From the NCBI GenBank assembly GCA_035251935.1, contig DATFDR010000011.1, positions 21,103 to 85,102 on the forward strand: a stretch of DNA of 64,000 nt, in the 5' to 3' direction. Within the stretch, counting starts at the first letter, position 1; each line of letters starts with the position of its first letter. The notes beneath the pieces were generated by a model, which searched no databases, was not told where the DNA came from, and saw only the letters and a list, made by a program, of their open reading frames with translations. The translations under genes and the position numbers were made by a program. This document shows, piece by piece, positions 2,500 through 42,406 of this stretch. The DNA is from Rhizomicrobium sp. (lineage in GTDB: Bacteria; Pseudomonadota; Alphaproteobacteria; Micropepsales; Micropepsaceae).

Positions 2500-2529
2500 A
2501 GCCGCATGTCGGCGAGTCCGCTCACCAAT

Positions 2530-2724
2530 CCCTCTCCCCTTGAGGGAGAGGGCGCAAAATCTCGCACTTAGCGAAGCACATGCGGAGCTAAGTGCTTAGA
2601 TTTTGCGGGTGAGGGGTGCGTTCATGCACCCACTCACCCCTCACCTGAAAAATCAATGGGTTGAGCGTCGCTATCGCTCCGCTAACCCAATGATTTTTCT
2701 TCCTCTCCCTCAAGGGGAGAGGAA
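2530..2724. repeat. Array of five back-to-back perfect or near-perfect hairpins (REP-like)
   Basis: Arms read directly: ccctctccc/gggagaggg (2530-2552), cgcaaaatct..gcacttagc/gctaagtgc..agattttgcg (2553-2607), ggtgaggggtg/cacccctcacc (2608-2645), gaaaaatca.tgggtt.agcg/cgctaacccaatgatttttc (2647-2699), ttcctctccc/ggggagaggaa (2700-2724). Confidence 0.85.
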
Positions 2725-2820
2725 GAAAACGATGCGGGTTTCGCCATCAGGACGCGCGCTGCCCAGAATGACCAGTGGCAGCGGTGTCCGAGCGTACTCA
2801 GGTTTTCCTCCCCCTGCGCT

Positions 2821-2919
2821 TCGCTCGTGCTCGGCGCGTTCGTCGCTTTCGCAGATCCACCGTACCTGCTCACCGTCGCCACTACGCTGTCGCTAGGCGA
2901 CCGCGGGCCGCTTCTCACC
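2821..2919. repeat. Dispersed repeat, reverse-complement copy of the element at 29560-29635
   Basis: The reverse complement of 2821-2919 (ggtgagaagcggcccgc..gtagtggcgacggtgagcaggtacggtggatctgcgaaagcgacgaacg) aligns by eye with 29560-29635 (ggtgaggagcggtccgc..gtagcgtggcggatgagcaggtccagtggacctgcgagagcgacgaacg). Confidence 0.75.
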
Positions 2920-12750: not shown

Positions 12751-13289
12751 TGGCGGACCCCAAAGCAAAACCGGCGAACGATATCGAGCGCCACACTTTG
12801 ACGGTGCTGGTGGACAATGAGGCCGGCGTGTTGGCGCGCGTGGTCGGGCTGTTTTCCGGGCGCGGCTACAATATCGAAAGCCTGACGGTGGCCGAGGTCG
12901 ATCCCATGGCCCGCACCAGTCGCATCACCATCGTCACCAGCGGCACTTTGCAGGTGATCGAACAGATCGAGGCGCAGTTGCGCCGCCTGGTACCCACCCA
13001 CAGGGTCACCAACTGGACAGATGCCAGGAATGGGGCCAAGGCGGGTATCGAGCGCGAAATGGCGCTGATCAAGGTGGCGGGCACCGGTGACAAGCGCGTG
13101 GAAGCTTTGCGCATGGCCGATGCCTTCCGGGCCCGCCCCGTCGACACCACCCATTCCAGCTTTGTCTTCGAAATCACCGGGGCCCCCGCCAAGATCGACT
13201 CATTCGTGGACCTGATGCGGCCTTTGGGGCTGGTGGATGTCTCCCGCACCGGGGTCGCTGCGATCAGCCGCGGCCCGGAAGCCATGTGA
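12747..13289 (+). CDS. ilvH: Acetolactate synthase, small (regulatory, ACT-domain) subunit
   Basis: HTLTVLVDNEAGVLARVVGLFSGRGYNIESLTV..; its start overlaps the ilvI stop. Confidence 0.9.
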   Translation: MMADPKAKPANDIERHTLTVLVDNEAGVLARVVGLFSGRGYNIESLTVAEVDPMARTSRITIVTSGTLQVIEQIEAQLRRLVPTHRVTNWTDARNGAKAGIEREMALIKVAGTGDKRVEALRMADAFRARPVDTTHSSFVFEITGAPAKIDSFVDLMRPLGLVDVSRTGVAAISRGPEAM

Positions 13290-13300
13290 AAGACTGAGCG

Positions 13301-15116
<1,816 letters not shown>

Positions 15117-15711: not shown

Positions 15712-16898
15712 CGCTGGGCACGCCGCTCTCGCCCGCCGCGACCCGTGTGATGCTGCTGGGTTCGGGCGAGCTGGGCAAGGAAGTCGTCATCGAACTGCAA
15801 CGGCTTGGTGTCGAGACCATCGCGGTAGACCGCTATGCGGACGCCCCCGCGCATCAGGTGGCGCATCGCTCGCATGTGATCGACATGACCGACGCCAGGG
15901 CATTGCGCGCCCTGGTGGAACAGGAACGCCCGCATGTCCTGGTGCCGGAGATCGAGGCGCTGGCCACCGACGAACTGGTGCGGATCGAAGCGGACGGGCT
16001 TTGCACCGTCATCCCTACCGCGCGCGCCGCCCATATCACCATGAACCGTGAACGCATCCGTGTCTTGGCGGCGGAAGAATTGAAATTGCCGACCTCGCCC
16101 TATGCCTTTGCGACGTCCCTGGCGGAATTGCAGGCAGCAGTGGCAAGGATCGGCTTTCCCTGTTTTGTGAAGCCGGTGATGTCCTCCTCCGGCAAGGGCC
16201 AGTCGCGGCTGAAATCCGCCGACGATGTGGCGCCCGCTTGGCAAAAGGCCCTCAGCGCGGGGCGGGTGCGTGAGGCCCGGGTGATCGTGGAAGGCGAAAT
16301 AAGCTTCGATTTTGAGATCACCCAGCTGACGGTGCGCGCCAGTGACGGCGCGCATTTCTGCGAACCCATCGGCCATGTCCAAAAGGATGGCGATTATGTG
16401 GAAAGCTGGCAGCCGCAAGCCATGAGCGACGCGGCGCGCAAAAAATCCCGCCATATGGCTGCCGCCGTCACCGGCGCATTGGGCGGCTTGGGAATTTTCG
16501 GCGTCGAATTGTTCGTCAAGGGTGATGAGGTCTGGTTTTCGGAAGTCTCGCCGCGGCCGCATGACACCGGCCTGGTCACCTTGGTGTCGCAATTGCAATC
16601 GGAATTTGCTTTGCATGCCCGCGCCATTCTGGGCTTGTCGGTCAATACCGAAATGGCATCGCCGGGCGCCTCGGCGGTGATCTATGGCGGGGTGGAAGCC
16701 GGTGCGCTCTCCTTCGACGGCGTGGAAGAGGCGCTGAAAATTCCCGGCAGCGAACTGCGCCTGTTCGGCAAGCCGCAATCCTTTGTGAAGCGCCGCATGG
16801 GCGTGGCGCTGGCGCGCGCCGCCACCACCGATGAAGCGCGGATGCGCGCCAAGGCCTGCGCGGGCGCGGTGAAACCGGTTGTTTACCTGTCACGGTAA
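15708..16898 (+). CDS. purT: Formate-dependent phosphoribosylglycinamide formyltransferase (GAR transformylase 2)
   Basis: [48 protein letters not shown]..; ATP-grasp fold; ATGA overlap with the upstream stop. Confidence 0.9.
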
Positions 16899-19750: not shown

Positions 19751-21556
19751 TCAGGTCAAACGGTACTTGCGTTCGGCATACCAATAAAGCGGCTGCCAAA
19801 AGAGGCGGTTTATCACCACCACAAAAAAGGCCATGACCGCGATCCCCAGCACGACATGATGGAAATCGCCCCTTTGGGTGGCGTCCGAAATATAGGCGCC
19901 CAGGCCATGGGCCCTCAGCGTGGTATTGCCCCAATTGGCGACCTCCGCCAGCACACTGGCGTTCCAGGCGCCGCCCGAAGCGGTGATCGCGCCGGTCAAA
20001 TAGTGCGGAAACACGGCCGGAAGGGCGATCTTTTTCCACCACAACCAGCCTTTGACGCCGAAATTGTCGCCGGCATCCATCAACTCGCGCGGGATGGTGC
20101 TGGCGCCGCCGATCACATTGAACAGGATGTACCATTGGGTGCCCAAAACCAGCAGCGGCGACAGCCAAATGTCGGGATTGAGCTGCCACAAGACGATCAG
20201 CGATACCGCCAAGGGAAACAGCAGATTGTTGGGAAAAGCCGCCAGGAACTGCGCCACCGGCTGCACGATTCGGGTCAGGCGCGGACGCAAGCCCACATAG
20301 ACGCCGATGGGCGTCCAGATCGCGCTGGCGATGGCGATCAAGACCACAACCCGCAGCATGGTGAGAAAACCCAACCCGATGGCGGTCAAAAGATCGCCCC
20401 AAGTCAGATTGGCGTAGGCAAAGGCATAGATGCGCAAAGCGGCATAAAAGCCCAACGCCGCCAAGATCACATACCAAAGGATGTTCGCCAGCCGGTCGTC
20501 ATGATCGCGCAACGCCGCCCGCATCCCAAAGGAGGGCGGCTGGAAATGATAGCTCCAGCGCATCATGTGGTCGAAGGGCGCGGTCATCCAATCGATCAGC
20601 CGCGAACGGCGCAGCATGGTGAGCATCCAGCTCTGCGGTGGATCCTCCAGCTGCTCTTCGCTGACCCGGAAGCGGTCCGCCCAGGCCACCAGCGGGCGGA
20701 ACAATAGTTGATCATAGATCAGGATCACCACCAGCATGGCGAAGATCGCATAGAAGATCGCGGTGAGGTCCTTTTGGGCGATGGCGACCGCGATATAGGA
20801 GCCGATACCCGGCAGCGCTATGGTGGTCTTGCCCACGCTGATGGCCTCGGAGACGGTGACGAAGAACCAACCGCCCGACATGGAGACCATCATGTTCCAG
20901 ATCAGCGGCGGGGTGGCGAAGGGCGCTTCGATGCGCCAGAAGCGCGCCCAGGCCGACAGGCCGAACATGCGCCCTGCTTCGGTCAGGTCTTCAGGCACGG
21001 TGCGCAGCGACTGATAGAAGCTGAAGGCCATGTTCCAGGCCTGGCTGGTGAAGATGGCAAAGACGCAGGCCAACTCCGCCCCGAACACCCGCCCCGGCGA
21101 CAGGGACAGGAACCAGACCACCGTCACCGACAAAAAGCCCAGGATCGGGACCGACTGGAGGATATCGAGCAAGGGCACCAACAGCAGGCCGGCGCGCGGA
21201 TTCTTGGCCGCCCAGGTGGCATAACTGAGGGTAAAGACCAAGGACACGCCCATAGCCAGCAGCATGCGAAGCCCGGTGCGCAGTGCGTAACCGGGCAATA
21301 GCGCCGGATCCAGGCTGAGACTGTTGCCGCTGACCGTGGATAGCGGTTGAATCAGCAAGCGGCTGGCATCGGCGAAGGCGACGATGAAGCCCAGCACCAA
21401 CGCCGCCGCCAGCAGATCCCAACGGCTGGGCAGCAGGCGGCGTGCTTCGATCGAGACGGGCGGCAGGATCCTCATGTCCGGCGGGGCCTCGAAGAGGTCA
21501 AGGGTGGATTGCGATTGTTCGCCCGCCCGGATAGGCGGGTTCGCGCGCCCTGGCAA
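19751..21556 (-). CDS. ABC transporter permease, duplicated (fused two-domain) NitT/TauT-type
   Basis: 601 aa, highly hydrophobic, with two repeated permease halves. Directly upstream of the ATPase on the same strand. The start codon is uncertain (alternative MRILPP.. at 21475). Confidence 0.8.
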   Translation of the reverse strand: MPGRANPPIRAGEQSQSTLDLFEAPPDMRILPPVSIEARRLLPSRWDLLAAALVLGFIVAFADASRLLIQPLSTVSGNSLSLDPALLPGYALRTGLRMLLAMGVSLVFTLSYATWAAKNPRAGLLLVPLLDILQSVPILGFLSVTVVWFLSLSPGRVFGAELACVFAIFTSQAWNMAFSFYQSLRTVPEDLTEAGRMFGLSAWARFWRIEAPFATPPLIWNMMVSMSGGWFFVTVSEAISVGKTTIALPGIGSYIAVAIAQKDLTAIFYAIFAMLVVILIYDQLLFRPLVAWADRFRVSEEQLEDPPQSWMLTMLRRSRLIDWMTAPFDHMMRWSYHFQPPSFGMRAALRDHDDRLANILWYVILAALGFYAALRIYAFAYANLTWGDLLTAIGLGFLTMLRVVVLIAIASAIWTPIGVYVGLRPRLTRIVQPVAQFLAAFPNNLLFPLAVSLIVLWQLNPDIWLSPLLVLGTQWYILFNVIGGASTIPRELMDAGDNFGVKGWLWWKKIALPAVFPHYLTGAITASGGAWNASVLAEVANWGNTTLRAHGLGAYISDATQRGDFHHVVLGIAVMAFFVVVINRLFWQPLYWYAERKYRLT

Positions 21557-21859
21557 CCCACTTTGCCGGTCACAAAGATGGGCACAAAGGGACTGCGGCC
21601 GGACGGACTTGCTGCCAAAATCCGCAAGCGGCGAAAACCATTTTTCAGATGCTTCCAGCCCCGGAACGGCAACACTTTGTTTACACTGTTAATTCAGGGT
21701 TGTGCCAAAGCGGAAGTTTTTTCAGCCATACCCCTGTCGCTATTGCGCCACAGGGCAAAATCGGCGTAAAACCGGGGCCAATGCTGAAAAAAAACGGTGA
21801 TTTATCCGTTGGTTACAGCGTTAAGGCACCGCATCTACGGGCGGAACGGCGATAGGTCA

Positions 21860-22020
21860 ATGACGGAAGGCGTGCATATCGAAATCGAATGGGGCGGATT
21901 TTCCGCGGCCGGTTTCGCGCGCGCCAACATTCAACCCCGTCCTTCCCTCGGTTCTTCGCGCGCACTTCTTCTTCTTAGCCGCCCCTAGGCGCTGACGATG
22001 CGCGAATGGTTCGCGCGTCG
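21860..22020 (+). promoter_or_regulatory. Candidate leucine leader peptide with a 4x CTT run, plus an attenuator hairpin, upstream of leuA
   Basis: The ORF ending ..SRALLLLSRP-stop (stop at 21986-21988) has four consecutive identical CTT codons at 21965-21976. An 11-bp stem at 21996-22020 is followed by ggtgttta. The leuA ATG is at 22090. Confidence 0.4.
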
Positions 22021-29905: not shown

Positions 29906-29981
<76 letters not shown>

Positions 29982-30131: not shown

Positions 30132-31799
30132 TCAGGTACGGCCGCAAACGCCCGGTGGGGTCACAGCGCCGCTGGGCGCTTGGTAGGGGTAGGGTTGAGG
30201 GGCGATCACACGGGCCGCCATGGCGGAGCCGGCGCGGCGAGCCATCATCCAATCGCCAAGCCGGCGCGCCTCGCCTTCGGAAAAGGTGAAGCGGATTTGG
30301 CCACTAGGCTGCAGCAGCCCCACCGCCAAGCCATAGGCGCCGCTGCCGTTTTGGATGGTGCGCGGTGGGCGAACCACGCCGCGTACGGCCGCCTCCCGAT
30401 AGACCAGCCCCGCGCCGTCGAGCCAGTGCCTGTCCCGGTCGGCTGCAGCCGCAGCCGCTTGGTGGCTGGTCTCGTCGCCATAGCGGAATCGGTAGCTTTG
30501 CACGATCGCCCAGTGGCGCCATTCCCGGATCGGCCGGATCACGCTGGCACTCCATTGCAGCCGCGCATCGCCTGCCTGCTCCGTGCGAGACGGCTGATCG
30601 CGCAGGGCGGCATATAAGAGATCGAAGCGGTGGGGCGAGCCGCGCGAGCCGTCGGTCAGGCGGGGAGTCAGGGTGACGCTCACCCGGTCGCAGCCGGCTT
30701 CGGCTCCATGAAAGTTTAGGGTCTGTAGGGCAAACAAGTAGTTGAACGCCACCGTCGGATCGTTGGGAACCGGGCGCTCCCGGGGCGAAAGCCCATCTTC
30801 CTCGACAGGCGTTCCGTTCACGGTCAAGCCAACCTCGACGGCGCGGATTTCCGGCCGCCGCAGAAAATCCGTCCGCAGCTTGAAGTAGCTCCAGCCCACG
30901 CCGTCGGGAACGCGGGCGGCGAGGGTATCGAGGGAGGGAGTCACCCAACGGCGAACGGATGTTTCCTGCGCCCATGCCGGGGAGATGGGGGAGATATCCT
31001 GCCACAAGCTGGCCGACTTGACGCACGGGCGCAGCCAGCCGGTGGAGCGCGACGTGCCCTTGCATGCGCCGCCCTCCACGCAGTCGAAATAGTCGTGCTC
31101 GACTTTTTGGCGTGGCAAGGGTGTCGGCCGGTCAAGACAAATTTGCGCCCTGGGGGTCTGGTCCGCCGTCAGCCGGCTATTGAGTGGCGTGGCGGTGATG
31201 GTGCCCTCCACCCGGCCGCTCGGGTATGGATGATACACATGTTCGAACCACGGGCTGCCATCGGCTTCTGACTGCGGCGCCAAATTCCTGTTTATAACGA
31301 CCGCACCTTCGCGGAGGTTGAGACGAACATTCTCGCTATAGCGCTTGGGATCCAAACTCGCTTGGCGGCGATACGTGAAGTGCAGGTCGACGACACTCGG
31401 CACCCCGGCCGCGGCAGCTATAGGCTGCTGCAGCTGTTGGGCCAAGTTTAAGAGGTCTTGTTCGATCAGCGGCGTGCGGCGCTGCAGGCAATCGCGAATA
31501 TGCGCGTCCATCGTCGGGCGGATCGCCGCCGGTGCGTCGATTGCGCCCCGGATGACGCGCTTGCGATCGTTGAGGCTAAGACTGCCGGTCAGGCTTTTGA
31601 TCAATCCGGCGATGTTCAGCGAGATTGCGCTTTGCCGGCTCTCATCGGTGCTGGCCAGGCATTGCGCATAGGCCAAATCGTTGACCTTGGTCTTGATCTT
31701 GACTGCGAGATCAAGGGACTGCTGGGTGGTGAGGTTTTGCGCCTGCGCCGCGGGGGCCAGCAGCAAGACCAGAAGGGCGCTTGCGCTTGGCCGTTTCAT
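30132..31799 (-). CDS. Secreted hypothetical protein (~555 aa), no recognisable family
   Basis: Signal peptide MKRPSASALLVLLLAPAAQAQ (ATG at 31799, TGATG overlap with the upstream stop). Several Cys pairs. The N-terminal ~100 aa share the motifs A.CLA.TD..R and IR.C with the upstream small protein. Confidence 0.6.
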   Translation of the reverse strand: MKRPSASALLVLLLAPAAQAQNLTTQQSLDLAVKIKTKVNDLAYAQCLASTDESRQSAISLNIAGLIKSLTGSLSLNDRKRVIRGAIDAPAAIRPTMDAHIRDCLQRRTPLIEQDLLNLAQQLQQPIAAAAGVPSVVDLHFTYRRQASLDPKRYSENVRLNLREGAVVINRNLAPQSEADGSPWFEHVYHPYPSGRVEGTITATPLNSRLTADQTPRAQICLDRPTPLPRQKVEHDYFDCVEGGACKGTSRSTGWLRPCVKSASLWQDISPISPAWAQETSVRRWVTPSLDTLAARVPDGVGWSYFKLRTDFLRRPEIRAVEVGLTVNGTPVEEDGLSPRERPVPNDPTVAFNYLFALQTLNFHGAEAGCDRVSVTLTPRLTDGSRGSPHRFDLLYAALRDQPSRTEQAGDARLQWSASVIRPIREWRHWAIVQSYRFRYGDETSHQAAAAAADRDRHWLDGAGLVYREAAVRGVVRPPRTIQNGSGAYGLAVGLLQPSGQIRFTFSEGEARRLGDWMMARRAGSAMAARVIAPQPYPYQAPSGAVTPPGVCGRT

Positions 31800-32158
31800 C
31801 ACGGGCTCCAATGCTCTTTGGCATATTTCTCCATGCAGGCTCGGATTTTGTCGTTCTCGTCGACGACCTGGTTCTGTGGCACCCGCTCGCCCGCGCCGCG
31901 CTTATTGACCGCATGCGAGGCGACTTCGGCAGCGACCCCAACCCCCGAGGCCGGATGTTCGCCACTGGCGCTAACCTTGCCGCCGCGCGTCTGGTCGGTG
32001 TTGGCAAGGCAATAGGCCTCGGCCTGACGGGTGCGCTGTTCCAACACATTCTCGGCGGATGTGCCGCTACCCGAAGGACCGGTTTGCCACCAAACGAAAC
32101 CTGCCACAAGAATCGCCGCGGCGACCAGGCTCGCGAGTATCACCATCCACTTGTTCAC
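31799..32158 (-). CDS. Small membrane-anchored hypothetical protein (119 aa)
   Basis: N-terminal TM WMVILASLVAAAILVAGFVWW, and motifs AYCLANTDQTR and IRACMEKY. 11 nt downstream of the DUF218 gene stop. Confidence 0.5.
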   Translation of the reverse strand: MNKWMVILASLVAAAILVAGFVWWQTGPSGSGTSAENVLEQRTRQAEAYCLANTDQTRGGKVSASGEHPASGVGVAAEVASHAVNKRGAGERVPQNQVVDENDKIRACMEKYAKEHWSP

Positions 32159-33009: not shown

Positions 33010-33255
33010 GTGAGCAAAACAGGCACCGTAACCGTAACCTTCCCCAGGCGGCGGAAGGTGTATGTCAATGGAAACTATACGCCGACCTTACCCAAAACGA
33101 GCCCCTGCACCTTCGCGGTGGAGTATGGCGAGAATGTCTTTGAGACCGTCAACGGGGATGATCGAATCGACTTTCGCGGCAGTGTGACAACAAATGACGC
33201 GAATAAGGATTGCGACTTGGCGCTTGCACCCGTCGTCCCCTCGGAGCCCAAGTGA
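33010..33255 (+). CDS. Small hypothetical protein (81 aa, beta-rich), translationally coupled to the patatin gene
   Basis: GTG at 33010, 7 nt after aaagga. VSKTGTVTVTFPRRRKVYVNGNYTPT.. (PEGA-domain-like flavour). Its stop TGA overlaps the patatin ATG (tgATG at 33253-33257). Confidence 0.4.
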   Translation: MSKTGTVTVTFPRRRKVYVNGNYTPTLPKTSPCTFAVEYGENVFETVNGDDRIDFRGSVTTNDANKDCDLALAPVVPSEPK

Positions 33256-34748
33256 TGACGCCCAGCAAAAAGCATCATGCCGGCCGTCCGGGTAAACGGG
33301 CAATTTTATCAACCTGCATCAGCCTGGCTCTGATGTTGAGCGGCTGTGCCTATCCCATACGCAATGTTCCGGCGCAGAAGATCGATAGCAGCGGCTATCG
33401 CTGGTCGAATCTGAAGGGCGGAGTCTTGGACGATACGCTGGTTATCGTGGCGGCATCCGGTGGCGGTACGCGCGCCGCGACTTTGGAACTTTCGGTCTTG
33501 AAAGGCCTGAAGGATATCAAGCTGAAGCGGGGCGGCCGGCTGTCCGATGAGGTCGATATCATCTCCTCCGTATCCGGCGGCAGTGTGACGGCGGCCTATT
33601 TCGCGCTTCATGGCAGCGATCGTATCGATGAGCTTGAAACCAAATTTTTGCGCAAGGATGGCATCGGCGCGCTTTTGGCTTCGGGGCTCAACCCCGTGGG
33701 ATTGGCCAGGATATCCACGCCCGCGGTTGAGCGGATCGATCTTCTGATCGAATATTTCGAGAAGACCCTCTTCATCAACCACGAAAGTTTTGGCAGCCTG
33801 TTGCAAGCGGGCCGGCGGCCCTATCTGATTTTGAATGCAGCCGATATGGTCGAGGGTATCCCGTTTGCCCTGACCCAGACCAATTTTGACCTGCTCTGCA
33901 GCGATCTTTCGGCCCTGCCGCTGGCGGTGGGCGTTGCGGCGTCCGCGGCCTTTCCCGTTGCTTTGTCTGCCGTAACGCTCAAGAACCACTCGCCCTGTCC
34001 CGCCCAGCCACGCAGCTGGCCTCCTCTCTGGGTTCGAGCCGATGCCGCAACGGACTGGTATGACAATCCCGAGCGCGCCATGCGGGGGCGGGCTGGGCTC
34101 GCCTATGCCCAAGGCAAAGGCGGGCCACATTCCAAAGACTATGTCCATCTTCTGGACGGCGGTATCGCCGACAACCTCGGTCTTGGAGAGCCGTTGCGTA
34201 TCCTGACGACGGTCGCGCCATCTCCCGCTTTTCTGGACGATCTGGAAGCAGGCAATATCAAGAAAATCGTCTTTGTCGTGGTCAATGCCCGTGCGTTTGA
34301 AACGTCAACGCTTAACCGGGAACAAGCCACCCCCGGCATCTTGCCAATGCTGCTGAGCACGATATCGAGCGGGATCGACAGGACCGCGGCAGGCAACGCT
34401 GCCAGATTGATGGAAGTGCTCAGCAATCAGCTATCCGCGAAAGCCTCCGAGAGACGCGCCAACTTTCCCGATATGGCGGCAAACCTGGATGAGCTCCAAA
34501 AGCATATCTATTTGCTCAACGTCGATTTTGACGCGATTCGGGAAGAATCTTGCCGGCGCAAGTTCCACAATATTAAGACCAGCTGGACCAATAGCGATCG
34601 GGAAATCGACGGTCTTCTGAAGATTGGGCGGGCCCTGCTGCGGCAAGATCCGCAGTTTCCGAGGATGCTTGCGGACATAGACGCGGAATCAGCGGACAAG
34701 ACGACCGTCGCTGAGGCTTGCGCGATGCTTGATGCACAACGAAATTAG
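33255..34748 (+). CDS. Patatin-like phospholipase, predicted lipoprotein
   Basis: Lipobox ..LALMLSGC.., oxyanion motif ASGGGTRAA, nucleophile elbow ISSVSGGS, catalytic Asp motif LLDGGIADNLG; about 170-aa C-terminal extension. Confidence 0.85.
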   Translation: MTPSKKHHAGRPGKRAILSTCISLALMLSGCAYPIRNVPAQKIDSSGYRWSNLKGGVLDDTLVIVAASGGGTRAATLELSVLKGLKDIKLKRGGRLSDEVDIISSVSGGSVTAAYFALHGSDRIDELETKFLRKDGIGALLASGLNPVGLARISTPAVERIDLLIEYFEKTLFINHESFGSLLQAGRRPYLILNAADMVEGIPFALTQTNFDLLCSDLSALPLAVGVAASAAFPVALSAVTLKNHSPCPAQPRSWPPLWVRADAATDWYDNPERAMRGRAGLAYAQGKGGPHSKDYVHLLDGGIADNLGLGEPLRILTTVAPSPAFLDDLEAGNIKKIVFVVVNARAFETSTLNREQATPGILPMLLSTISSGIDRTAAGNAARLMEVLSNQLSAKASERRANFPDMAANLDELQKHIYLLNVDFDAIREESCRRKFHNIKTSWTNSDREIDGLLKIGRALLRQDPQFPRMLADIDAESADKTTVAEACAMLDAQRN

Positions 34749-34829
34749 CGTCGGTTGTTTTATGTGTCGATATGGGTTTTTGATACTTTAATAGTTCGCA
34801 GTAGTCTGCAATTTTGATGGGGCGGTTCG

Positions 34830-35498
34830 ATGTCGAATATCGCGGGCAAAGCTTATGGCATGAACGTCATCACGCCGATGCATTCGTGGGCGACGTGGTT
34901 CCAGAATCTCATATTCATGTTGTCACGCGCGCTTCCGAAGACGCTGGGCGGGCTGCTCAATCTCAGCCTGATCCATTTTGCGCGCTGGGTCCTGATCCGG
35001 CGGGAGCAATGGCCGGCAGGCGACAAGGGCAAGCCCGCTTTACAGTATGACTACATGCTCTTCTGCAGCAATTTCAACGGAACCTGGGACCAATATATCG
35101 ATGCCTTCGCCGACGGCATCCCGACCGGGCTGGATCTGTTCTGGTACACAAGCCTGAAATATCCAAACTCCATCCCGATTACATCGTTCAAGTCCTACAT
35201 CGTCCATAACCAGTTCCACACGAACTACTATTATAACGCGACGCCGGGCTCGGCGCAGCGCGACATCAAGGCGGCGCTCAACGTGCTGGCGGAGCTCAAG
35301 AAGTTGGCGGCTGTGCGCAGCGCTCCGGGCATGACACCGGCTGCCTTCGCGGCGGAATACCGCAAATTCCTGGTCGCGGTGCAGAGCAGTCTGGGTTCGC
35401 CGGGCTATGCGCCGATCGCCAGCCTGGACACCTGGACCGCCGATGAGAACCGTCTGCCGTTCGTTGTCTGCACGCCCCCAATCGCAGCAAGGAAATGA
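34830..35498 (+). CDS. Hypothetical protein P1 (222 aa) with an IHFARWV motif; possible DyP/ferredoxin-like half-domain
   Basis: ATG at 34830 after an AT-rich gap; 4-nt spacer to the next gene. Motifs SLIHFARWVLI and YDYMLFCSNFNGTWDQYIDAF parallel motifs in P2 and in the C-terminal half of the downstream DyP. Confidence 0.7.
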   Translation: MSNIAGKAYGMNVITPMHSWATWFQNLIFMLSRALPKTLGGLLNLSLIHFARWVLIRREQWPAGDKGKPALQYDYMLFCSNFNGTWDQYIDAFADGIPTGLDLFWYTSLKYPNSIPITSFKSYIVHNQFHTNYYYNATPGSAQRDIKAALNVLAELKKLAAVRSAPGMTPAAFAAEYRKFLVAVQSSLGSPGYAPIASLDTWTADENRLPFVVCTPPIAARK

Positions 35499-35502
35499 CA
35501 TC

Positions 35503-36477
35503 ATGCCGACATTCGACGGTGGCCATTGTTTCCTGACGGCGCTGTTTCCGATCAACAGTGCGAATGTGGTCGACCATAACGGGCAAAAGCACTCCCATGT
35601 CCAGCTCGTGCGCCACGCGCTGGCGGTCCTGCCGACCGCCCATCAATCGCCCGCGACCGACAGGGCGCCCTGCAACAGTCCCTTCGCGCGCTGCACCAAA
35701 ACGCATTTTGCACGCATCGTCGTGCTCGACGATGTAGTCTTCAACGGTCGTATGCCGGAAGATGCGCTCGCCGTTACGATCAAGGGCGAGGACCCGCTGG
35801 TGCCAAAACCGATGGATATGTTGCCTGGCCCATATCTCTTCTTCATTGCTGATATTGATGCACCACAAGGTATGGACACAGAACTCCGCGACTGGCTGCG
35901 CGAGGTATGGACCAAGATGCACAGCGATCTCGATCCGGTCTTCGAGAATTGTTTCCAGTATACGGCCAAGGTCAGGGATGCCGACAGCTTTGCCGACTAT
36001 GTGATGTCGTATCGGCTCGAAACCACCATGCCGTTCAACGACTATTGGCCGCTCGGAATCGCTCTGCCGTTGCCCACTCTATCGCTTGGCTTGCTCGGTG
36101 TTACAGCGGCGGTTGTCGCGGCGGCTGTTGGTTATGGGCTCTGGTGGTTGCTCGGCCTAGCGCAACTGACTGTTGAGACGGGCATTTGGCGCTGGTTGGA
36201 GATTCTGTTGGTGGTGTTGGCAGGGCTCGGCGCGGGTATCTACATCGCCTACCGCAGGGTGATCAAGGCCGGTCTCAAGCCCTTCCCCATGGCGCCGAAT
36301 TCCGATCTGCCTTCGATCCTCAAGGGGCTCTATCTGCAGCGCCGGCTCATTCCCAAAGTCGCCGAGCTACAAGGCAAGTCGCAGCAGGAACTGTTCGACG
36401 AGATGGGTGCGTTCTTGAACGCGATGCAGGTCGACAATATGCAGGCGCCCACCCAGGCGCCTGGAACGATCCGATAG
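35503..36477 (+). CDS. Hypothetical membrane-anchored protein P2 (324 aa) with a THFARIVVLDD motif and two C-terminal TM helices
   Basis: ATG at 35503 after aaggaaa. PYLFFIADIDAPQGMDTELRDWLREVW. TM stretch LGLLGVTAAVVAAAVGYGLWWLLGL and WLEILLVVLAGLGAGIYIAY. Confidence 0.7.
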   Translation: MPTFDGGHCFLTALFPINSANVVDHNGQKHSHVQLVRHALAVLPTAHQSPATDRAPCNSPFARCTKTHFARIVVLDDVVFNGRMPEDALAVTIKGEDPLVPKPMDMLPGPYLFFIADIDAPQGMDTELRDWLREVWTKMHSDLDPVFENCFQYTAKVRDADSFADYVMSYRLETTMPFNDYWPLGIALPLPTLSLGLLGVTAAVVAAAVGYGLWWLLGLAQLTVETGIWRWLEILLVVLAGLGAGIYIAYRRVIKAGLKPFPMAPNSDLPSILKGLYLQRRLIPKVAELQGKSQQELFDEMGAFLNAMQVDNMQAPTQAPGTIR

Positions 36478-36491
36478 GCAAGGCCAAGACG

Positions 36492-38084
36492 ATGGACAGA
36501 GAACTCGACCTTGCCGATATCCAGGGCAATATCCTGCAGGAATTCGTCAGCGGCTATCCCGCGGCGCGATTTCTTCTGCTGCGTGTCACGGACGCCCGCA
36601 AGGGGCGCCAATTCGTGCTGGAATACCGTTCCAAGGTCACAACGGCTCTGCGTTGGGCTTCCAGCAAGGCCTTTGCACAGAAAATCCAGACCACCAAGCC
36701 GGACATCGCCATCAATATCGGTTTTACATTCAGCGGGTTTCTGGCGCTGGAACTGCCGACGCGAACATTGGCGCGCTTGCCGCCGGAATTCATCGACGGC
36801 ATGAGGAAGCGCGCCGCCATATTGGGCGACGACAAGATCGCCAGTGACAAAGACGGCGATGCCGTCCAGCATTGGGATCCGGTGTGGCGGACGGGTCAGG
36901 CGCACATCATCATCGGTCTCAATAGCGGTATTGATGGCGCGGGCAATCCGCTGCCCGGACTGGATCGAGAAACGGAGTATCTTGAAGAACGCTGCGCCGA
37001 ATACGGGCTCCAGATCTTAAGGGGACACGGCAAGAACAATGCCGCCTGGCAGGATGCTTGTGCGCTTCTGGCGCCGGACGGCAACGTCCAGATGGAAAAA
37101 AACAAGGCGACCTATAAGCCCGTGCCGCGCGAACATTTCGGCTTTATTGACGGCATCAGCAACCCGGTATTTGACGGTCAGTTCGGCGATCCGCATGCCG
37201 ACCAAATGATGTCGATCGGCAACGGCAAGCTGCTTCCCACTGTCGCCGGCCGGTCCGATCTGGACCGCTGGGCGCCGCTTGCCACCGGCGAGTTCCTTCT
37301 GGGCTATCCCGATGAGGCACAGGAGGTAGCAGACATGGCGGCGCCGAATGAGATCATGCGTAATGGCACCTTCATGGTCTTTCGCAAGCTTCATGAGAAC
37401 ATTAAGAGCTTCAAGGATTATTTCGACCGTGCGGCGCAGGTTTACGCCAGGGCCAACAATGTGCCGGTCGCGGACGCCTGCATGATTCTGAAAGCCAAGA
37501 TGGCTGGACGCTGGGAGGACGGCGTACCGGTTGCGGTCGCGTCAACGATAGCCGAATGGAAGGCATTCAATGCGAAGAATGCCGGTAACTCAGGGCCGGA
37601 CTGGGCCTATACGAATTTCACCTATGGCGACGATCCGCATGGCGCGAAATGCCCGGTCGCGGCGCATATGCGGCGCACCAACACACGCGACAGCCTTACG
37701 GGAACATCGTCCGCGCTCAACAATCGCCGGCGCATTCTTCGTCGCGGACAGCCTTATGGCAAGACCGTGGAAGACGATGATGGCGACCACGGCATCATCT
37801 TCATGGTCATGTGCGCGAGTATCGAGCGTCAATTCGAATTCGTACAGCAGCAATGGATCAATTACGGGCTCGATTCCAATGCCGGCAGCGATACGTGTCC
37901 GATCGTTGGCAATCGCAGGGGCGATTCAAAGTTCATCGTTCCCGTCGATCCGAAAAGCCAGGACACGCCGTTCATCGCCGCCGGTATCCCGCAGTTTGTG
38001 GAGATGCGAGGCGGCGATTATTTCTTTCTGCCGAGCATGACCGCCCTGCGCATGATCGGCATGGGAACCATAGATCCGACGTGA
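36492..38084 (+). CDS. Dyp-type (dye-decolourising) haem peroxidase, long form (~530 aa), no signal peptide
   Basis: MDRELDLADIQGNIL.. start, GxxDG motif HFGFIDGISNP, proximal-His region AAHMRRTNTRD, distal-Arg region RRILRRGQPYG, ..GIIFMVMCASIERQFEFVQQQW... Confidence 0.85.
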   Translation: MDRELDLADIQGNILQEFVSGYPAARFLLLRVTDARKGRQFVLEYRSKVTTALRWASSKAFAQKIQTTKPDIAINIGFTFSGFLALELPTRTLARLPPEFIDGMRKRAAILGDDKIASDKDGDAVQHWDPVWRTGQAHIIIGLNSGIDGAGNPLPGLDRETEYLEERCAEYGLQILRGHGKNNAAWQDACALLAPDGNVQMEKNKATYKPVPREHFGFIDGISNPVFDGQFGDPHADQMMSIGNGKLLPTVAGRSDLDRWAPLATGEFLLGYPDEAQEVADMAAPNEIMRNGTFMVFRKLHENIKSFKDYFDRAAQVYARANNVPVADACMILKAKMAGRWEDGVPVAVASTIAEWKAFNAKNAGNSGPDWAYTNFTYGDDPHGAKCPVAAHMRRTNTRDSLTGTSSALNNRRRILRRGQPYGKTVEDDDGDHGIIFMVMCASIERQFEFVQQQWINYGLDSNAGSDTCPIVGNRRGDSKFIVPVDPKSQDTPFIAAGIPQFVEMRGGDYFFLPSMTALRMIGMGTIDPT

Positions 38085-38091
38085 GGCTGCT

Positions 38092-39456
38092 ATGTCCGCG
38101 ATCATTTCTCTGTTCATAGCGATCTGGGCGCGGTTTCTGATCGTCCTTTCGGGGCTTTGGGCGCCGGTCAGGATCGTCTGGATCGGCGTCCGCAGTCTGT
38201 TCGGCTCGGGTGGCACGGTCGCGACGCGGCTGCGCGCCAATCTCGGCAGTCCCGAAGGTCAGCGTCTGATATTCAGTTTCCTGCGCGCCTTCATTCCCAA
38301 CCTGGCGCTTCCGGTCACATTCATCACCGCCTATGAGAATAGCGGCACGGTTCTGGTCACCCGTTTTGACGACGTCAAGGATGTTTTATCGCGCGACGGT
38401 GAATTCGAGGTCGTGTATGGCCCGCGCATGGAGAAAATAACCGGCGGCTCGAACTTCTTCCTTGGCATGCAGAACACACCAACCTACACGCGCGATACAT
38501 CGAACATGCGCCTTGCGATGCGGCGCGAAGACGTAGCCGGCCTCCTCAAGCCCTATGCCGATACGCGCGCGGCGGAGTTGGTGAAAGCCAGAACGAACAG
38601 GATCGATGTGCCGCAGGACCTTACCCTGCGCGTGCCATCCGGCATTGTGGGCAATTATTTTGGTGTGCCCGGTCCGTCGGAGCAGGAATTGATCGACTGG
38701 ACGACGCTGATGTTCTGGTATCTGTTCATCGATCTCAAAGCGGATCCGTCGCTGGACGCCAAAGCGATGGATGCCGCCGCGAAATGCCGTTCTTATCTCG
38801 ACGGCGCGATCGCCGCCCGAAAATCCAGCCCCACCGCGGCCGACGACGTACTCAACCGATGCCTGAACCTGCAGCGCGCCAATGCGCCGGGCATGGACGA
38901 TCTGGGGATCCGGAACAATCTGATCGGGTTGATGATTGGCTGTGTGCCGACGCTCTCGAAGGCCGCGGTGCAGGCGTTGGACCAGCTTTTGGATCGGCCC
39001 CGGGCGCTTGCCGGCGCGCAAGCCGCGGCCCGCGCCGGTGACGATGTCCTGGTTGCACAATATTGCCTTGAGGCCTTGCGTTTCAATCCGGTCAATCCGC
39101 TGATCTATCGCCGCGCCGCTATGGATACGCAGGTTGCGGCCCATCGCTTTCGCCGGGTGGCGGTCAAAAGGGGCGATATGGTCATGGCCGTGAATCTGTC
39201 TGCGATGTTCGACCCGCTGAAGATCGATTCACCGACGTGTTTTCGCCCGGGCCGGCCGCGTGACAATTACATCCTGTGGGGTGACGGGCTTCATACCTGC
39301 TTTGGCGCGCACATCAACCAGGCCGTGATTCCGGCGATGCTGAAACCGTTGCTCGTCAAGCAGGGGCTTCGCCGTGCCGCCGGCGCCGCAGGCCAAATCG
39401 ATTCGGGAGACACGCCGTTCCCGGTCCACATGCATGTCGAATTCGATAAAGGCTGA
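38092..39456 (+). CDS. Cytochrome P450, N-terminally membrane-anchored, atypical I-helix
   Basis: ExxR (EALRFNP) and Cys-ligand loop WGDGLHTCFGAHIN. N-terminal TM AIISLFIAIWARFLIVLSGLW. The I-helix region reads MIGCVPTLS rather than AGxD/ET. 7 nt after the DyP stop. Confidence 0.85.
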   Translation: MSAIISLFIAIWARFLIVLSGLWAPVRIVWIGVRSLFGSGGTVATRLRANLGSPEGQRLIFSFLRAFIPNLALPVTFITAYENSGTVLVTRFDDVKDVLSRDGEFEVVYGPRMEKITGGSNFFLGMQNTPTYTRDTSNMRLAMRREDVAGLLKPYADTRAAELVKARTNRIDVPQDLTLRVPSGIVGNYFGVPGPSEQELIDWTTLMFWYLFIDLKADPSLDAKAMDAAAKCRSYLDGAIAARKSSPTAADDVLNRCLNLQRANAPGMDDLGIRNNLIGLMIGCVPTLSKAAVQALDQLLDRPRALAGAQAAARAGDDVLVAQYCLEALRFNPVNPLIYRRAAMDTQVAAHRFRRVAVKRGDMVMAVNLSAMFDPLKIDSPTCFRPGRPRDNYILWGDGLHTCFGAHINQAVIPAMLKPLLVKQGLRRAAGAAGQIDSGDTPFPVHMHVEFDKG

Positions 39457-39490: not shown

Positions 39491-40603
39491 TCAACGCCAG
39501 CCTTCAAGAAAGCCGGCGTCGTACCAGTCCCAGAGAATATAAAAGACGAACATGGGCTTGCGCTCAGAGCTGTTGTTAAGCGGGAGGCGCACGCCCGCGC
39601 TGGCCAATATGTGCTGGCGTTTTGAAAGACTGACTTGCACTTGCGGGACAATGTCCCAATCCACCTGCGCTCCCGGCGCGAACTCATGCCAGGTCAGAAG
39701 TTCAATCTGCGGCGACCAAGACCGTCCCCACCCGTCTTCCTCCGCAAATGTCCTGCCCAACGACAAACGGGCATGGGCCTCCTTGGACAATCCCTTACCG
39801 GCAGGAAACTCGCCGAAAATGTCGCCTTGCAGGAAAAAATCGGCCGGCAGCGATTGGGCGAACAGGAGATGGGGTTCAAAATTGAAGGTGCCTTTGCCCA
39901 ACCCTCGCGCCGCGCTGCCCGTCGGCAGCACCACTTCGCCCAATATGCTGAAGATGGTCCCGCCGTCCACATCGGCCAGCAGATTCTGTTTCCAGGCCAC
40001 GCCGATATCGCCGATGCCGGTTTTGACGCCCGCGCCGCTATCGATGCTGGAGAAGGGCAGGCTCACCTCCAACTGTCCACGCGCTCCAAACCGCTTCTCG
40101 TAAATCGAGGTAGAGGTAATCGCCTGTGCGCCGCTGGTGTTGAAGGTGGTGCGGTTTAGCACCTCATCCTCGGGAAAGGCTTTTTCCGTGAACAATGCCA
40201 GCGGCAAGTTGAATTCGCCGCGGGGCCAGCCTGATTTTTGGCAGAAGGTGCGCAAATGCGCGAGGATTGCAGTGATTTCATCGTCGTTCAGCGCCTGATC
40301 GAAAGCCGGCATGGTGCGGGAAAAAGCGCGGCGCGGCCCGCCCTTGTGGACAATGGAAGACCAGTCCCCATCGGCTTCGCGGTTGGCGAAGCTGCAGTCT
40401 TGAAAGTCCGGCATTTCGTTTGGAAAACCCACCTCCGAAATTTTGCGGTCGCCGCGCCCGTCCGCGCCATGACAGGCGGCGCAATTTTCCTTGAACAGGG
40501 CGCGGCCATCCGGCAGCGATTGCGACGCAGGCGCAGCCAGGCTGGGCAAGCTGCAAACGCTTATCAGAAACAAAATCGAAAATACTTTCGACGGTCCGAA
40601 CAA
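39491..40603 (-). CDS. Secreted mono-haem cytochrome c fused to a ~250-aa haem-free, putative beta-barrel domain
   Basis: Signal-like N-terminus. One CAACH site with a downstream RTMPAF (Met ligand). The remainder is G/S/T/F-rich with an alternating pattern, reminiscent of MetA/phenol-degradation-type outer-membrane channels. TTG start. Confidence 0.65.
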   Translation of the reverse strand: MFGPSKVFSILFLISVCSLPSLAAPASQSLPDGRALFKENCAACHGADGRGDRKISEVGFPNEMPDFQDCSFANREADGDWSSIVHKGGPRRAFSRTMPAFDQALNDDEITAILAHLRTFCQKSGWPRGEFNLPLALFTEKAFPEDEVLNRTTFNTSGAQAITSTSIYEKRFGARGQLEVSLPFSSIDSGAGVKTGIGDIGVAWKQNLLADVDGGTIFSILGEVVLPTGSAARGLGKGTFNFEPHLLFAQSLPADFFLQGDIFGEFPAGKGLSKEAHARLSLGRTFAEEDGWGRSWSPQIELLTWHEFAPGAQVDWDIVPQVQVSLSKRQHILASAGVRLPLNNSSERKPMFVFYILWDWYDAGFLEGWR

Positions 40604-40702
40604 TCGCGTCTCCCGCGCTCGCGCGAATTAGAACTTATGTGTCCGTTGACGCAAGATCGCGCCTATTGCTAACTCACATTGCCGTTCGGATTTTTCCTGC
40701 AC

Positions 40703-42406
40703 ATGAAAGTGATCCGCAAACACGCAAAGCTTTTCCTGCTGTGCGGATCGTTGGTGATGCTGCTTGCCGTGGGCCTTGCGACTCATGCCGTCCTTGCGCG
40801 GGAACCAGGCGATCAATTCACGCTCCCGATCACGCATCTCCTCTTCACGACGTCCACCCACTGCATCGCCTGCCACAGCCAAATGCGCGCGCCGAACGGA
40901 GAGGACATTTCCATCGGCTATGAATGGCGTGCCTCGATCATGGCGAACTCGGCGCGTGATCCTTATTGGCAAGCCTCGATCCGCCGCGAAACCATGGATC
41001 ATCCCGCCGCCGCTGCCGCCATCGAGGACAAATGCGCCACATGCCATATGCCGATGCAGCGGTTTCAGGCCCGCGCCGAGGGCCTGCGCGGCCAAGTGCT
41101 AAAATATCTCGCTGGCGTCAGCGACGGCTCGGCGATGGAGGAACCCGAAGGCGAATTGGAAGATGCCAAGGATGTCAAAGCGGCCTTGGCGGCTGACGGT
41201 GTTGGGTGCACCCTCTGCCATCAGATTCAGCCCGGTAATCTGGGCAAGGCTTCCAGTCTGGATGGCGGCTTTCTCATCGACACGGTAAAAAAACTGGAAG
41301 AGCGTGAAGTGTTCGGCCCCTATGACACTCCTGACAAAGGCCGCCAGCGTATCATGCATTCTTCGAGCTCTTTCTTGCCGGCGCGGGGCGATCACATCAA
41401 GGCATCGGAACTCTGTGCCACCTGCCACACCCTGCTCACAGAGGCGCTGGACGAGGAGGGCAAGCCTGCGGGCACTTTGCCGGAGCAGATGCCGTTCCAG
41501 GAATGGCAGCACAGCGCCTATTCCAAAACGGACTCCTGCCAGTCCTGCCACATGACCCGGGCGCCCGACCAGTCGCCCATCACGTCCGTGCATGCCCAGC
41601 CGCGTGACGGGGTGATGCGCCACACCTTCGTCGGCGGGAATGCCTTCATGCTACGCATTCTGAAGGATTATGCCCGCGAACTCGGCGTCATCGCCACGCC
41701 AGAAGAGCTGGAAGCTTCGGCGCAGCACTCAGAAAAATTTCTCTCGCAGCAGACTGCGTCCGTATCCGTCAGCAATGCCCGTCTCACCAGCGGCAGACTT
41801 GCCTTTGACGTCCGGGTGACAAACAAGGCGGGTCACAAATTGCCAACGGGCTATCCCGCCCGCCGTGTTTGGTTGCATGTCGTGGTGCGCGATACCCAGG
41901 GCAGGGTCGTCTTCGAATCCGGGGCGCTCAAGCGAGACGGCTCCATCGTCGGCAACGACAATGACGAAGACGCCTCAAAATTCGAACCGCATCACGACCG
42001 GATCACCGATCCCGGCCAGGTACAAATTTATGAATCCATCATGGGCGACAGCAAGGGGCGGGTGACCACCGGTTTGGTCTCTGGCAACCACTATCTCAAA
42101 GACAATCGCCTCTTGCCGCGTGGCTTCGACAAGAACACCGCCGATCCGCAAATCGCTGTGATAGGCGCGGCCCGCCAGGACCCCGGCTTTGTCGGCGGCC
42201 AGGATACGGTGACATACAGCGTGGCTGTTGCCGGCGGCCCCCATAGCGTGACCGCCGAACTGCTCTATGAATCCATCAGCTATCGCTGGGCGGAAAATCT
42301 GCGCCCCTATCAGGCGCGGGAGCCTCAGCGCTTCGTGAGATATTTCCAGGAACAGTCCCACCTGGCGGGCAAAACGCTGGCGCGGGCCAGCGATGTCATA
42401 AAATGA
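40703..42406 (+). CDS. Secreted pentahaem c-type cytochrome
   Basis: Signal/TM KLFLLCGSLVMLLAVGLATHAVLA. Five CxxCH sites read in the translation (CIACH, CATCH, CTLCH, CATCH, CQSCH). ..KAGHKLPTGYP.. motif, as in large multihaem families. Confidence 0.8.
   Translation: MKVIRKHAKLFLLCGSLVMLLAVGLATHAVLAREPGDQFTLPITHLLFTTSTHCIACHSQMRAPNGEDISIGYEWRASIMANSARDPYWQASIRRETMDHPAAAAAIEDKCATCHMPMQRFQARAEGLRGQVLKYLAGVSDGSAMEEPEGELEDAKDVKAALAADGVGCTLCHQIQPGNLGKASSLDGGFLIDTVKKLEEREVFGPYDTPDKGRQRIMHSSSSFLPARGDHIKASELCATCHTLLTEALDEEGKPAGTLPEQMPFQEWQHSAYSKTDSCQSCHMTRAPDQSPITSVHAQPRDGVMRHTFVGGNAFMLRILKDYARELGVIATPEELEASAQHSEKFLSQQTASVSVSNARLTSGRLAFDVRVTNKAGHKLPTGYPARRVWLHVVVRDTQGRVVFESGALKRDGSIVGNDNDEDASKFEPHHDRITDPGQVQIYESIMGDSKGRVTTGLVSGNHYLKDNRLLPRGFDKNTADPQIAVIGAARQDPGFVGGQDTVTYSVAVAGGPHSVTAELLYESISYRWAENLRPYQAREPQRFVRYFQEQSHLAGKTLARASDVIK

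Follow-up and report, generated by a model that had tools for sequence, protein, structure and literature searches.

Gene content of the locus

The subject of this study is a cluster of six genes at positions 33010-39456 of a 64,000-nucleotide (nt) stretch of DNA from Rhizomicrobium sp. (contig DATFDR010000011.1, positions 21,103-85,102), which we refer to as the window. A first-pass annotation, made from the letters of the window, had described these genes as co-directional and had joined them into a single lipid-oxidation pathway of the oxylipin type. All six were found where it had placed them, on the + strand: a mini-ORF (a small open reading frame, ORF), the gene of a patatin-like phospholipase, the genes of two unnamed proteins that we call P1 and P2, and those of a DyP-type haem peroxidase and a divergent cytochrome P450. 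The interval consists of two independent modules, the mini-ORF with the patatin gene and the P1-P2-DyP-P450 block (hereafter the cassette), which are adjacent in this lineage by happenstance. The core of the cassette is an obligate P1-P2-DyP triad, with a second haem enzyme as a frequent addition. The features of the interval are:

33010..33255, + strand: mini-ORF, 81 amino acids, GTG start; small PEGA-like protein without signal peptide
33255..34748, + strand: patatin-like phospholipase, 497 amino acids; predicted lipoprotein (lipobox LSGC); optional neighbour of the cassette, outside its core
34749..34829, + strand: spacer between patatin and P1, 81 nt, 42% GC against about 60% nearby
34830..35498, + strand: P1, 222 amino acids; soluble alpha+beta (ferredoxin-like) domain, then a pair of C-terminal helices
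35503..36477, + strand: P2, 324 amino acids; P1-type domain with two predicted transmembrane segments
36498..38084, + strand: DyP-type haem peroxidase, 528 amino acids, class C/D (V) by prediction, without signal peptide
38092..39456, + strand: divergent cytochrome P450, 454 amino acids, with N-terminal membrane anchor

The genes from P1 to P450 form a tight operon-like block, since the gaps between them are only 4 nt (P1-P2), 20 nt (P2-DyP) and 7 nt (DyP-P450). The gap between patatin and P1 is 81 nt, and a scan of it gave no terminator-like or consensus promoter site. This spacer is likely to hold the promoter and ribosome-binding region of P1, with read-through from patatin also possible. 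In the other 78 loci that we read, P1 is likewise preceded by non-coding DNA, in most cases with G-rich sequence immediately ahead of the start codon, and inspection by eye of the regions upstream of P1 in 79 loci for a common operator or promoter revealed no universal motif.

Conservation and host range of the cassette

A search of contigs representing one genome per species gave 489 loci with a P1 relative, and the best 80 of these were set against the window in tblastn comparisons, their ORFs also being clustered all against all (individual loci carry L numbers below). Only four families were shared across these 80 loci, namely P1, P2, DyP and P450, and no other ORF cluster was present in more than 11 of them. 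P2 and DyP occurred in every one of the 80 loci with enough sequence, and the order P1-P2-DyP recurred throughout. P450 was found in 56 of the 69 loci with enough sequence, the remaining 13 having unrelated genes after DyP. In two lineages (L171-L174) P450 is placed ahead of P1, so that its link to the triad outlasts a change of gene order. Co-conservation, tight spacing and the natural fusions described below establish P1-P2-DyP-P450 as a real functional unit, as the first-pass annotation had supposed when it drew these four genes together into one operon.

The cassette is carried by Alpha-, Beta- and Gammaproteobacteria, by a Geobacteraceae metagenome-assembled genome (MAG) and by two MAGs labelled Mycobacteriaceae. 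An Acidobacteria-like contig has P1-P2-DyP-P450, and so do cyanobacterial-looking contigs, in which a GGDEF/EAL gene directly follows P450 (L170 12914-14744; L178 5675-7456). Plasmid pACIX901 of Granulicella tundricola (L081) carries P1-P2-DyP without P450, and was the only member of the plasmid collection in which P1 was found. On this plasmid a TonB-dependent receptor gene stands directly after DyP, and a gene for a Fur-family regulator together with katG lies about 4 kb downstream of the triad (L081 15379-18112).

We also took a census of neighbouring genes, applying Pfam to the two nearest ORFs on each side of the cassette (137 upstream and 119 downstream, 256 altogether). The 112 families found upstream and the 106 found downstream included none with more than five members. 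GST-like genes were among the neighbours, and patatin, with three ORFs upstream and three downstream, was among the commonest families in both lists.

P1 and P2 form an unnamed family of paralogues

Searches of Pfam, NCBIfam and the PDB sequences gave no match for P1 or P2. P1 nevertheless has more than 2,500 homologues, 65-96% identical to it among the matches listed and called 'hypothetical' wherever they are named, and the family comprises 1,601 representative clusters. Between Alpha- and Gammaproteobacteria P1 is 65-70% identical, with many invariant polar and aromatic residues. The lack of any annotation in Pfam, NCBIfam or the PDB is what could be said for regarding P1 and P2 as spurious or non-functional ORFs and the gene arrangement as coincidental; thousands of conserved homologues, a fixed order across phyla, fusions and confident fold predictions effectively refute this explanation, to which we give next to no probability.

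The first-pass annotation had described P1 and P2 as DyP-half-like. They are related to each other, and not detectably to DyP. Pairwise BLASTP among P1, P2 and DyP gave nothing significant, and hhalign comparison of P1 with P2 was weak when shallow alignments were used; with diverse deep alignments it reached 94.7% probability (E 5.7e-8) over 202 columns, the P2 membrane hairpin (about residues 184-251) appearing as an insertion before the C-terminal helices. Furthermore, the second gene of the Granulicella triad codes for a 210-amino-acid protein without transmembrane segments that matches both P1 (7e-15) and P2 (9e-13). This bridging protein and the profile alignment together show that P1 and P2 are paralogues. 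Against an alignment of cassette DyPs, hhalign returned 0.3% and 0.1% probability for the two proteins, and the THFAR/EHFGF resemblance was not significant. A kinship with the DyP/chlorite dismutase-type proteins was likewise rejected, the profile search of PDB sequences being empty and Foldseek returning no DyP.

Hydropathy analysis predicted that P2 crosses the membrane twice and that P450 is anchored by its N-terminus, with no membrane segment in P1 or DyP; two of the four cassette products are thus predicted to be membrane-anchored, in agreement with the first-pass annotation. AlphaFold2 modelled a natural P1-P2 fusion with a predicted TM-score (pTM) of 0.84 and the window P1 with a predicted local distance difference test score (pLDDT) of 80. 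The predicted core of each half is beta-alpha-beta-beta-alpha-beta, followed by two long C-terminal helices. When the fusion model and the P1 model served as Foldseek queries against the PDB, nothing matched at E<=0.001. The closest of the weak matches of P1 were the cyclase TcmI (1TUW), the Dabb-type hydroxynitrile lyase PeHNL and comparable small proteins of the dimeric alpha+beta-barrel class, with E of 0.2 or more and TM-scores of at most 0.56 on the target.

A P1-like domain was also seen at the C-terminus of an nSTAND1 NTPase in a 719-amino-acid metagenomic protein (P0280), which suggests that such domains also serve as sensor or effector modules outside the DyP context.

The DyP peroxidase and the P450

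The window DyP scored above the cut-offs of the Pfam models DyP_N (36.8 bits, cut-off 27.5) and Dyp_perox_C (30.5, cut-off 20) and of TIGR01413 (102.7 bits, cut-off 100.5). Its PDB matches are class C/D enzymes, the best being the class C peroxidase DrDyP of Deinococcus radiodurans (8RE3, 5e-40). D218 of the motif GFIDG (a GxxDG motif), H390 of AHMRRTNTRD and R415/R416 of LRRGQPYG are kept in 57-58 of 58 aligned cassette DyPs; we take D218 to be the distal Asp, R415/R416 the distal Arg and H390 the proximal His. Family models and intact catalytic motifs together indicate a class C/D (V) DyP-type peroxidase. The physiological substrates and roles of bacterial DyPs are still unsettled, and DrDyP itself is inactive at neutral pH, its authors proposing that partner proteins may control it (PMC10820274).

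The window P450 had no Pfam match at E<=0.01 and matched P450s of the PDB with E values down to 5e-12; its close homologues carry precomputed PF00067 matches, and distant cassette P450s match at 6e-10. It has the Cys loop WGDGLHTCFG (consensus WGxGxHxCFG) and an ExxR motif (EALR), and the Cys, H401, E327 and R330 are kept in at least 53 of 56 aligned sequences. The I-helix reads IGCVPT, with a consensus of G-x-[VIL]-P-T in all 55 orthologues, in which a hydrophobic residue occupies the acid position. The acid of the canonical (A/G)Gx(D/E)T acid-alcohol pair is therefore missing in 55 of 55, and no ferredoxin or reductase gene appeared near the cassette P450 in the neighbour censuses. The first-pass annotation had called this an atypical P450 without a partner, and both features hold across the orthologues and the censuses. 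CYP74 enzymes are recognized by a non-canonical Cys loop with an insertion. Membership of this type was considered and rejected: the Cys loop is canonical in length and sequence, and the 60 best PDB matches are ordinary bacterial P450s, none of them named as an allene oxide synthase.

Fusions and a second peroxide-using haem enzyme

The members of the triad occur in nature as fused proteins. P1-P2 fusions of about 560 amino acids make up about 18 protein clusters, and P1-P2-DyP fusions are found in two representative proteins of 937 and 964 amino acids. In four other representative proteins (P0344, P0359, P0370 and P0373; 587-643 amino acids) P1/P2-like domains are joined to a mini-haemoprotein of about 300 amino acids. 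A gene for the same mini-haemoprotein lies 42 nt ahead of P1-P2-DyP in L175/L176 (L175 5921-6958), a lineage without P450, and homologues are also found close to the cassettes of Methylobacterium sp. Leaf456 (L030) and of Aestuariicoccus (L075). The homologue downstream of the L075 cassette (15751-16677) has an in-frame stop and may be a pseudogene or the product of a sequencing error. In two cases (L163, L179) the P1/P2-mini-haemoprotein fusion is encoded on its own, without a DyP in the vicinity.

A profile of the mini-haemoprotein gave E values of 4.9e-15 for 3E4W/3E4Y, of about 1e-12 for true catalases and of 9.8e-6 for a coral allene oxide synthase domain (1U5U). The mycobacterial enzyme 3E4W acts on hydroperoxides. 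It is the catalase-related peroxidase of Mycobacterium avium subsp. paratuberculosis (PMC13613382), and the coral catalase-related allene oxide synthases are known to act on hydroperoxides (PMC5617202). P1/P2-type domains partner with two unrelated peroxide-using haem folds, that of DyP and that of this catalase-related protein.

Fusion to two unrelated haem enzymes would also suit a generic haem-enzyme partner, and P1 and P2 might then be mere accessories (a tether, a haem-loading chaperone or an activity switch) of a general peroxide-detoxifying DyP, with P450 as a loose passenger. The membrane hairpin of P2, the behaviour of DrDyP at neutral pH (PMC10820274), the Fur gene and katG near the Granulicella locus and the absence of P450 from 13 of 69 loci agree with such a role. 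However, the Alpha-Gamma identity of 65-70%, with its invariant residues, is met more typically in proteins with an active or ligand-binding site than in tethers, the link to P450 persists after the gene order has changed, and forms without transmembrane segments exist. We regard a purely accessory role as improbable.

The patatin and its mini-ORF

The window patatin matched Pfam PF01734 at 2e-12 (48.1 bits, cut-off 27.7), and its motifs GGGTR, SVSGGS and LLDGG are invariant in the alignment of its homologues; in the nucleophile motif SVSGG, Ser replaces the first Gly of GxSxG. The TGA stop of the mini-ORF overlaps the ATG of the patatin gene (TGATG). Mini-ORFs of the same position and pattern lie upstream of patatin homologues in L008, L010 and L059; those of L059 and L010 match Pfam PEGA above its cut-off, and the window mini-ORF aligns with both. 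To look at the patatin from its own side, we scanned metagenome contigs with the patatin alignment as query and obtained 80 loci at 32-59% identity (the same scan with the single protein as query gave no matches). A mini-ORF lies directly upstream of patatin in about 45 of these 80. The mini-ORF and patatin are a separate, translationally coupled module, in which the mini-ORF is the constant partner of the patatin; its product could be a chaperone or an inhibitor of the phospholipase before export.

The first-pass annotation had linked the patatin to the cassette in one pathway and had suggested gene-neighbourhood conservation as a check. The subfamily of the window patatin adjoins the cassette in 5 of 74 informative loci, two of which are near-identical to the window, and in 7 of 80 cassette loci when near-identical contigs with incomplete ends are included. 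Conversely, none of the 80 patatin-centred metagenome loci carried P1, P2, DyP or P450, 24 of them having at least 4 kb of downstream and 20 at least 4 kb of upstream sequence. Even where the two modules meet, their arrangement differs, the patatin being upstream on the same strand in the clade of the window and in L010, and downstream and convergent in L008 and L059.

Three distinct patatin families have come to stand beside the cassette in separate lineages, the window subfamily, a 1481-amino-acid form and a 311-amino-acid form. The second is found in L164/L165, where OsmC is followed by a 1481-amino-acid patatin-domain protein and then, after a gap of 10 nt, by P1-P2-DyP. The third is found in L171, where a 311-amino-acid patatin gene is followed by a TIR/TPR gene (the two spanning 458-3239) and then by P450-P1-P2-DyP; the TIR-TPR protein gave PADLOC TIR-type matches at 8e-9, and it may form with this patatin an unrelated defence pair beside the cassette. 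The third of the downstream patatin-domain ORFs counted by Pfam in the census was not located by our home-made profiles or motifs. By a rough estimate, patatin is found beside the cassette well above chance for a family that makes up about 0.1% of genes, though in few instances, some of them phylogenetically linked. We conclude that patatin is a recurrent optional neighbour of the cassette, and no component of it.

These data bear directly on the pathway first proposed, in which the patatin frees fatty acids, DyP with P1/P2 oxygenates them and the P450 rearranges the products to signalling oxylipins. In its favour are the co-directional genes, with patatin and P1 only 81 nt apart and no predicted terminator between them, the recurrence of the same subfamily in L008, L010 and L059, although in differing arrangements, the unrelated patatins of L164/L165 and L171, the place of patatin in the census and the kinship of the mini-catalase to allene oxide synthase. 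Opposed to it are the 69 of 74 informative cassette loci without this patatin, the patatin-centred loci, where its constant partner is the mini-ORF, and the predicted export of the patatin as a lipoprotein, as against cassette proteins without signal peptides; moreover, no dioxygenase was identified in the searches described below, and the P450 is not of the CYP74 type. A six-gene pathway thus seems quite unlikely to us. Its analogy to haem enzymes that convert hydroperoxides found support that we had not expected: in some lineages a haemoprotein related to allene oxide synthase and catalase-related peroxidase is adjacent to the triad or fused to P1/P2-like domains. The lipase is not co-conserved, and no dioxygenase was seen in those searches.

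Surroundings of the cluster

The first-pass annotation had placed the cluster in an accessory region next to a tRNA. A tRNA-Lys gene is present at 29906-29981, and the GC content dips to 0.57-0.60 across 32-44 kb; there is no second copy of the tRNA-Lys 3' end in the window and hence no att-like repeat. No integrase was among the ORFs that we read between the tRNA and the cluster, although no search aimed at integrases was made. Between them, at 30132-31811 on the - strand, is a gene for a 559-amino-acid protein with a signal-peptide-like N-terminus and no Pfam or NCBIfam match, which is kept only in L002.

On the other side, a gene on the - strand (39491-40603) codes for a Phenol_MetA_deg-like outer-membrane barrel that carries a fused cytochrome c domain and, divergent from it, a gene on the + strand (40679-42406) codes for a 575-amino-acid multihaem cytochrome with a weak ExtKL/NapC-like match. 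These cytochrome genes had been proposed to add redox capacity to the cluster. We rejected them as part of the system, since they are syntenic with the cassette only in the near-identical MAG L004; the synteny of the cytochrome genes, a DUF218 gene and the gene of the 559-amino-acid protein is confined to near-identical Rhizomicrobium MAGs (L002, L004).

No paralogue of any cluster gene lies in the rest of the window, nor does a mini-catalase or OsmC gene. Rfam found no family in the region; a sub-threshold snoU82P match (23 bits, gathering score 42) at 36256-36324, inside the P2 coding region, is almost certainly due to chance. PADLOC gave no defence-system match for any cassette protein. Elsewhere in the window the GC content falls to 0.554 at 12001-14000, and the AT skew is unusually high, 0.205, at 20001-22000.

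A proposed role for the cassette

We propose that P1 and P2 form a heterodimer that would be the obligate partner of the cytoplasmic class C/D DyP. In Proteobacteria, the hairpin of P2 would hold this complex at the inner face of the cytoplasmic membrane, with the N-terminally anchored P450 alongside. The assembly would most likely serve to convert, in a reaction that depends on peroxide, a hydrophobic hydroperoxide, probably derived from lipids, or a related substrate of the membrane, and the P450 would take the peroxide directly in place of O2 and a redox partner. In some lineages the catalase-related mini-haemoprotein might replace or accompany the P450 in that role, and phospholipases, OsmC and GST-like genes would be optional helpers recruited in some lineages. 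We give this account, with its two modules and its peroxide-dependent chemistry, an even chance of being right. The lipid/hydroperoxide part is a plausible inference, because the mini-haemoprotein is akin to allene oxide synthase and catalase-related peroxidase, the P450 lacks its I-helix acid, OsmC, GST and patatin genes are found as neighbours, and DrDyP is inactive at neutral pH, with partner proteins suggested (PMC10820274).

Several points weigh against it. No fatty-acid dioxygenase, of the lipoxygenase or the animal-haem-peroxidase type, was found among the cluster genes of the window or in the top 25 Pfam families of each list of neighbours (256 ORFs). Most host lineages make few polyunsaturated lipids. 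The I-helix acid is also missing in ordinary monooxygenase P450s, and the redox partners of bacterial P450s are often encoded elsewhere, so that the absence of a partner gene proves little. Furthermore, the second haem enzyme is dispensable, since P450 is missing from 13 of 69 loci and the mini-catalase from most; membrane attachment is not universal, as shown by an Acidobacteria P2 without the hairpin; and the associations with patatin, OsmC and GST alike are few and in part phylogenetically linked. No chemistry can be read from the P1/P2 fold because its PDB matches are weak (best E 0.2).

P1 and P2 could have a more direct part in the chemistry, as new oxygen- or peroxide-handling subunits, for instance a cofactor-independent or haem-assisted oxygenase that would generate an organic (lipid) hydroperoxide or hand it to a haem enzyme fused or adjacent to it (DyP, the catalase-related mini-haemoprotein or the P450 without the acid). 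We consider this unlikely; if true, it would be a lipoxygenase-independent bacterial counterpart of the fusions of lipoxygenase (LOX) with allene oxide synthase (AOS), and it would define a role for class C/D bacterial DyPs.

Alternatively, the substrate might be hydrophobic and not an acyl lipid (a carotenoid, quinone, hopanoid or tetrapyrrole), which DyP would cleave or modify and the P450 would hydroxylate, lipase and OsmC being incidental. DyPs are reported to be active on beta-carotene and on many aromatic compounds (PMC10820274). Small proteins of the dimeric alpha+beta-barrel type often bind polyketide-like or aromatic ligands, and the best fold matches of P1 are TcmI and PeHNL. Many of the hosts belong to pigmented or phototrophic groups (Roseomonas-like Acetobacteraceae, Methylobacterium, Sphingomonas, Chromatiaceae, cyanobacteria-like contigs and Granulicella), although non-pigmented hosts such as Mesorhizobium, Burkholderia and Geobacteraceae carry the cassette too. 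No family of pigment or tetrapyrrole biosynthesis is enriched among the census neighbours, and recurrent fusions to a mini-catalase of the hydroperoxide-enzyme type would be left unexplained, and we find a non-acyl substrate unlikely.

The reading in which the complex and the P450 convert a lipid-derived hydroperoxide would, if true, mean that bacteria have a route, new to science, by which lipid peroxides are handled or oxylipins are formed. Irrespective of the substrate, the cassette supplies candidate partners for bacterial DyPs and, with them, a way to ask what DyPs do, and the original claim is corrected in that the phospholipase is an optional neighbour and not part of the core. Culturable hosts of the cassette include Methylobacterium, Mesorhizobium, Sphingomonas trueperi, Agrobacterium vitis and Granulicella tundricola.

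Comparison with known systems

Full-text searches of the literature gave no description of the DyP/P450/patatin gene set, and we found no source naming P1 or P2. What is new is the P1/P2 protein family and its DyP(-P450) cassette; the DyP, P450 and patatin families are already known. The new family spans at least several hundred species and at least three phyla, has no Pfam, NCBIfam or PDB entry and is joined in natural fusions to two haem enzymes that use peroxide and are unrelated to each other.

The likeness to the coral lipoxygenase/allene oxide synthase fusions (1U5U, 3DY5; PMC5617202) and to M. avium 3E4W lies in a small catalase-related haemoprotein, which in the corals and in the P0344-type fusions is joined to a partner domain. 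In corals that partner is a lipoxygenase, whereas here it is a P1/P2-type alpha+beta domain; the window itself has DyP and P450 rather than a mini-catalase. Fungal Ppo/linoleate diol synthases and the plant route through LOX, AOS (CYP74) and allene oxide cyclase (PMC8124189, PMC11719350) resemble the cassette in combining a haem peroxidase-type enzyme with a P450 without the usual O2-activation residues, in the absence of a redox-partner gene near the P450 and in the lipase that is optionally upstream. They differ from it in that the cassette DyP is unrelated to the animal-haem-peroxidase/dioxygenase domain, with no dioxygenase identified, that its P450 has a Cys loop of canonical length and is not CYP74-like, and that the window proteins are separate, not fused.

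As regards the individual proteins, no solved structure is closer to the window DyP (5e-40) than DrDyP (8RE2/8RE3), which is also the nearest to a distant cassette DyP; its match to the window protein covers the C-terminal half only, at moderate identity. For P1 and P2, the core order of P1 fits the dimeric alpha+beta-barrel superfamily (TcmI 1TUW, PeHNL, ABM-like proteins), in which paired domains are typical; the two proteins differ in their extra helices and in the pair of helices at the C-terminus, no signal is seen at the sequence level, and the structural matches are not significant (E >=0.2). In the EfeUOB iron-uptake system and in the DyP cargo of encapsulins, a DyP likewise shares its operon with proteins that determine its location or its context. 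Their DyPs are of class A (Tat-exported) or class B and are accompanied by a permease and a cupredoxin or by a capsid shell, and the window DyP reached only 2.5e-4 and 20 bits against the EfeB model (cut-off 428). Unlike both, the cassette combines a predicted cytoplasmic class C/D DyP with two paralogous alpha+beta proteins.

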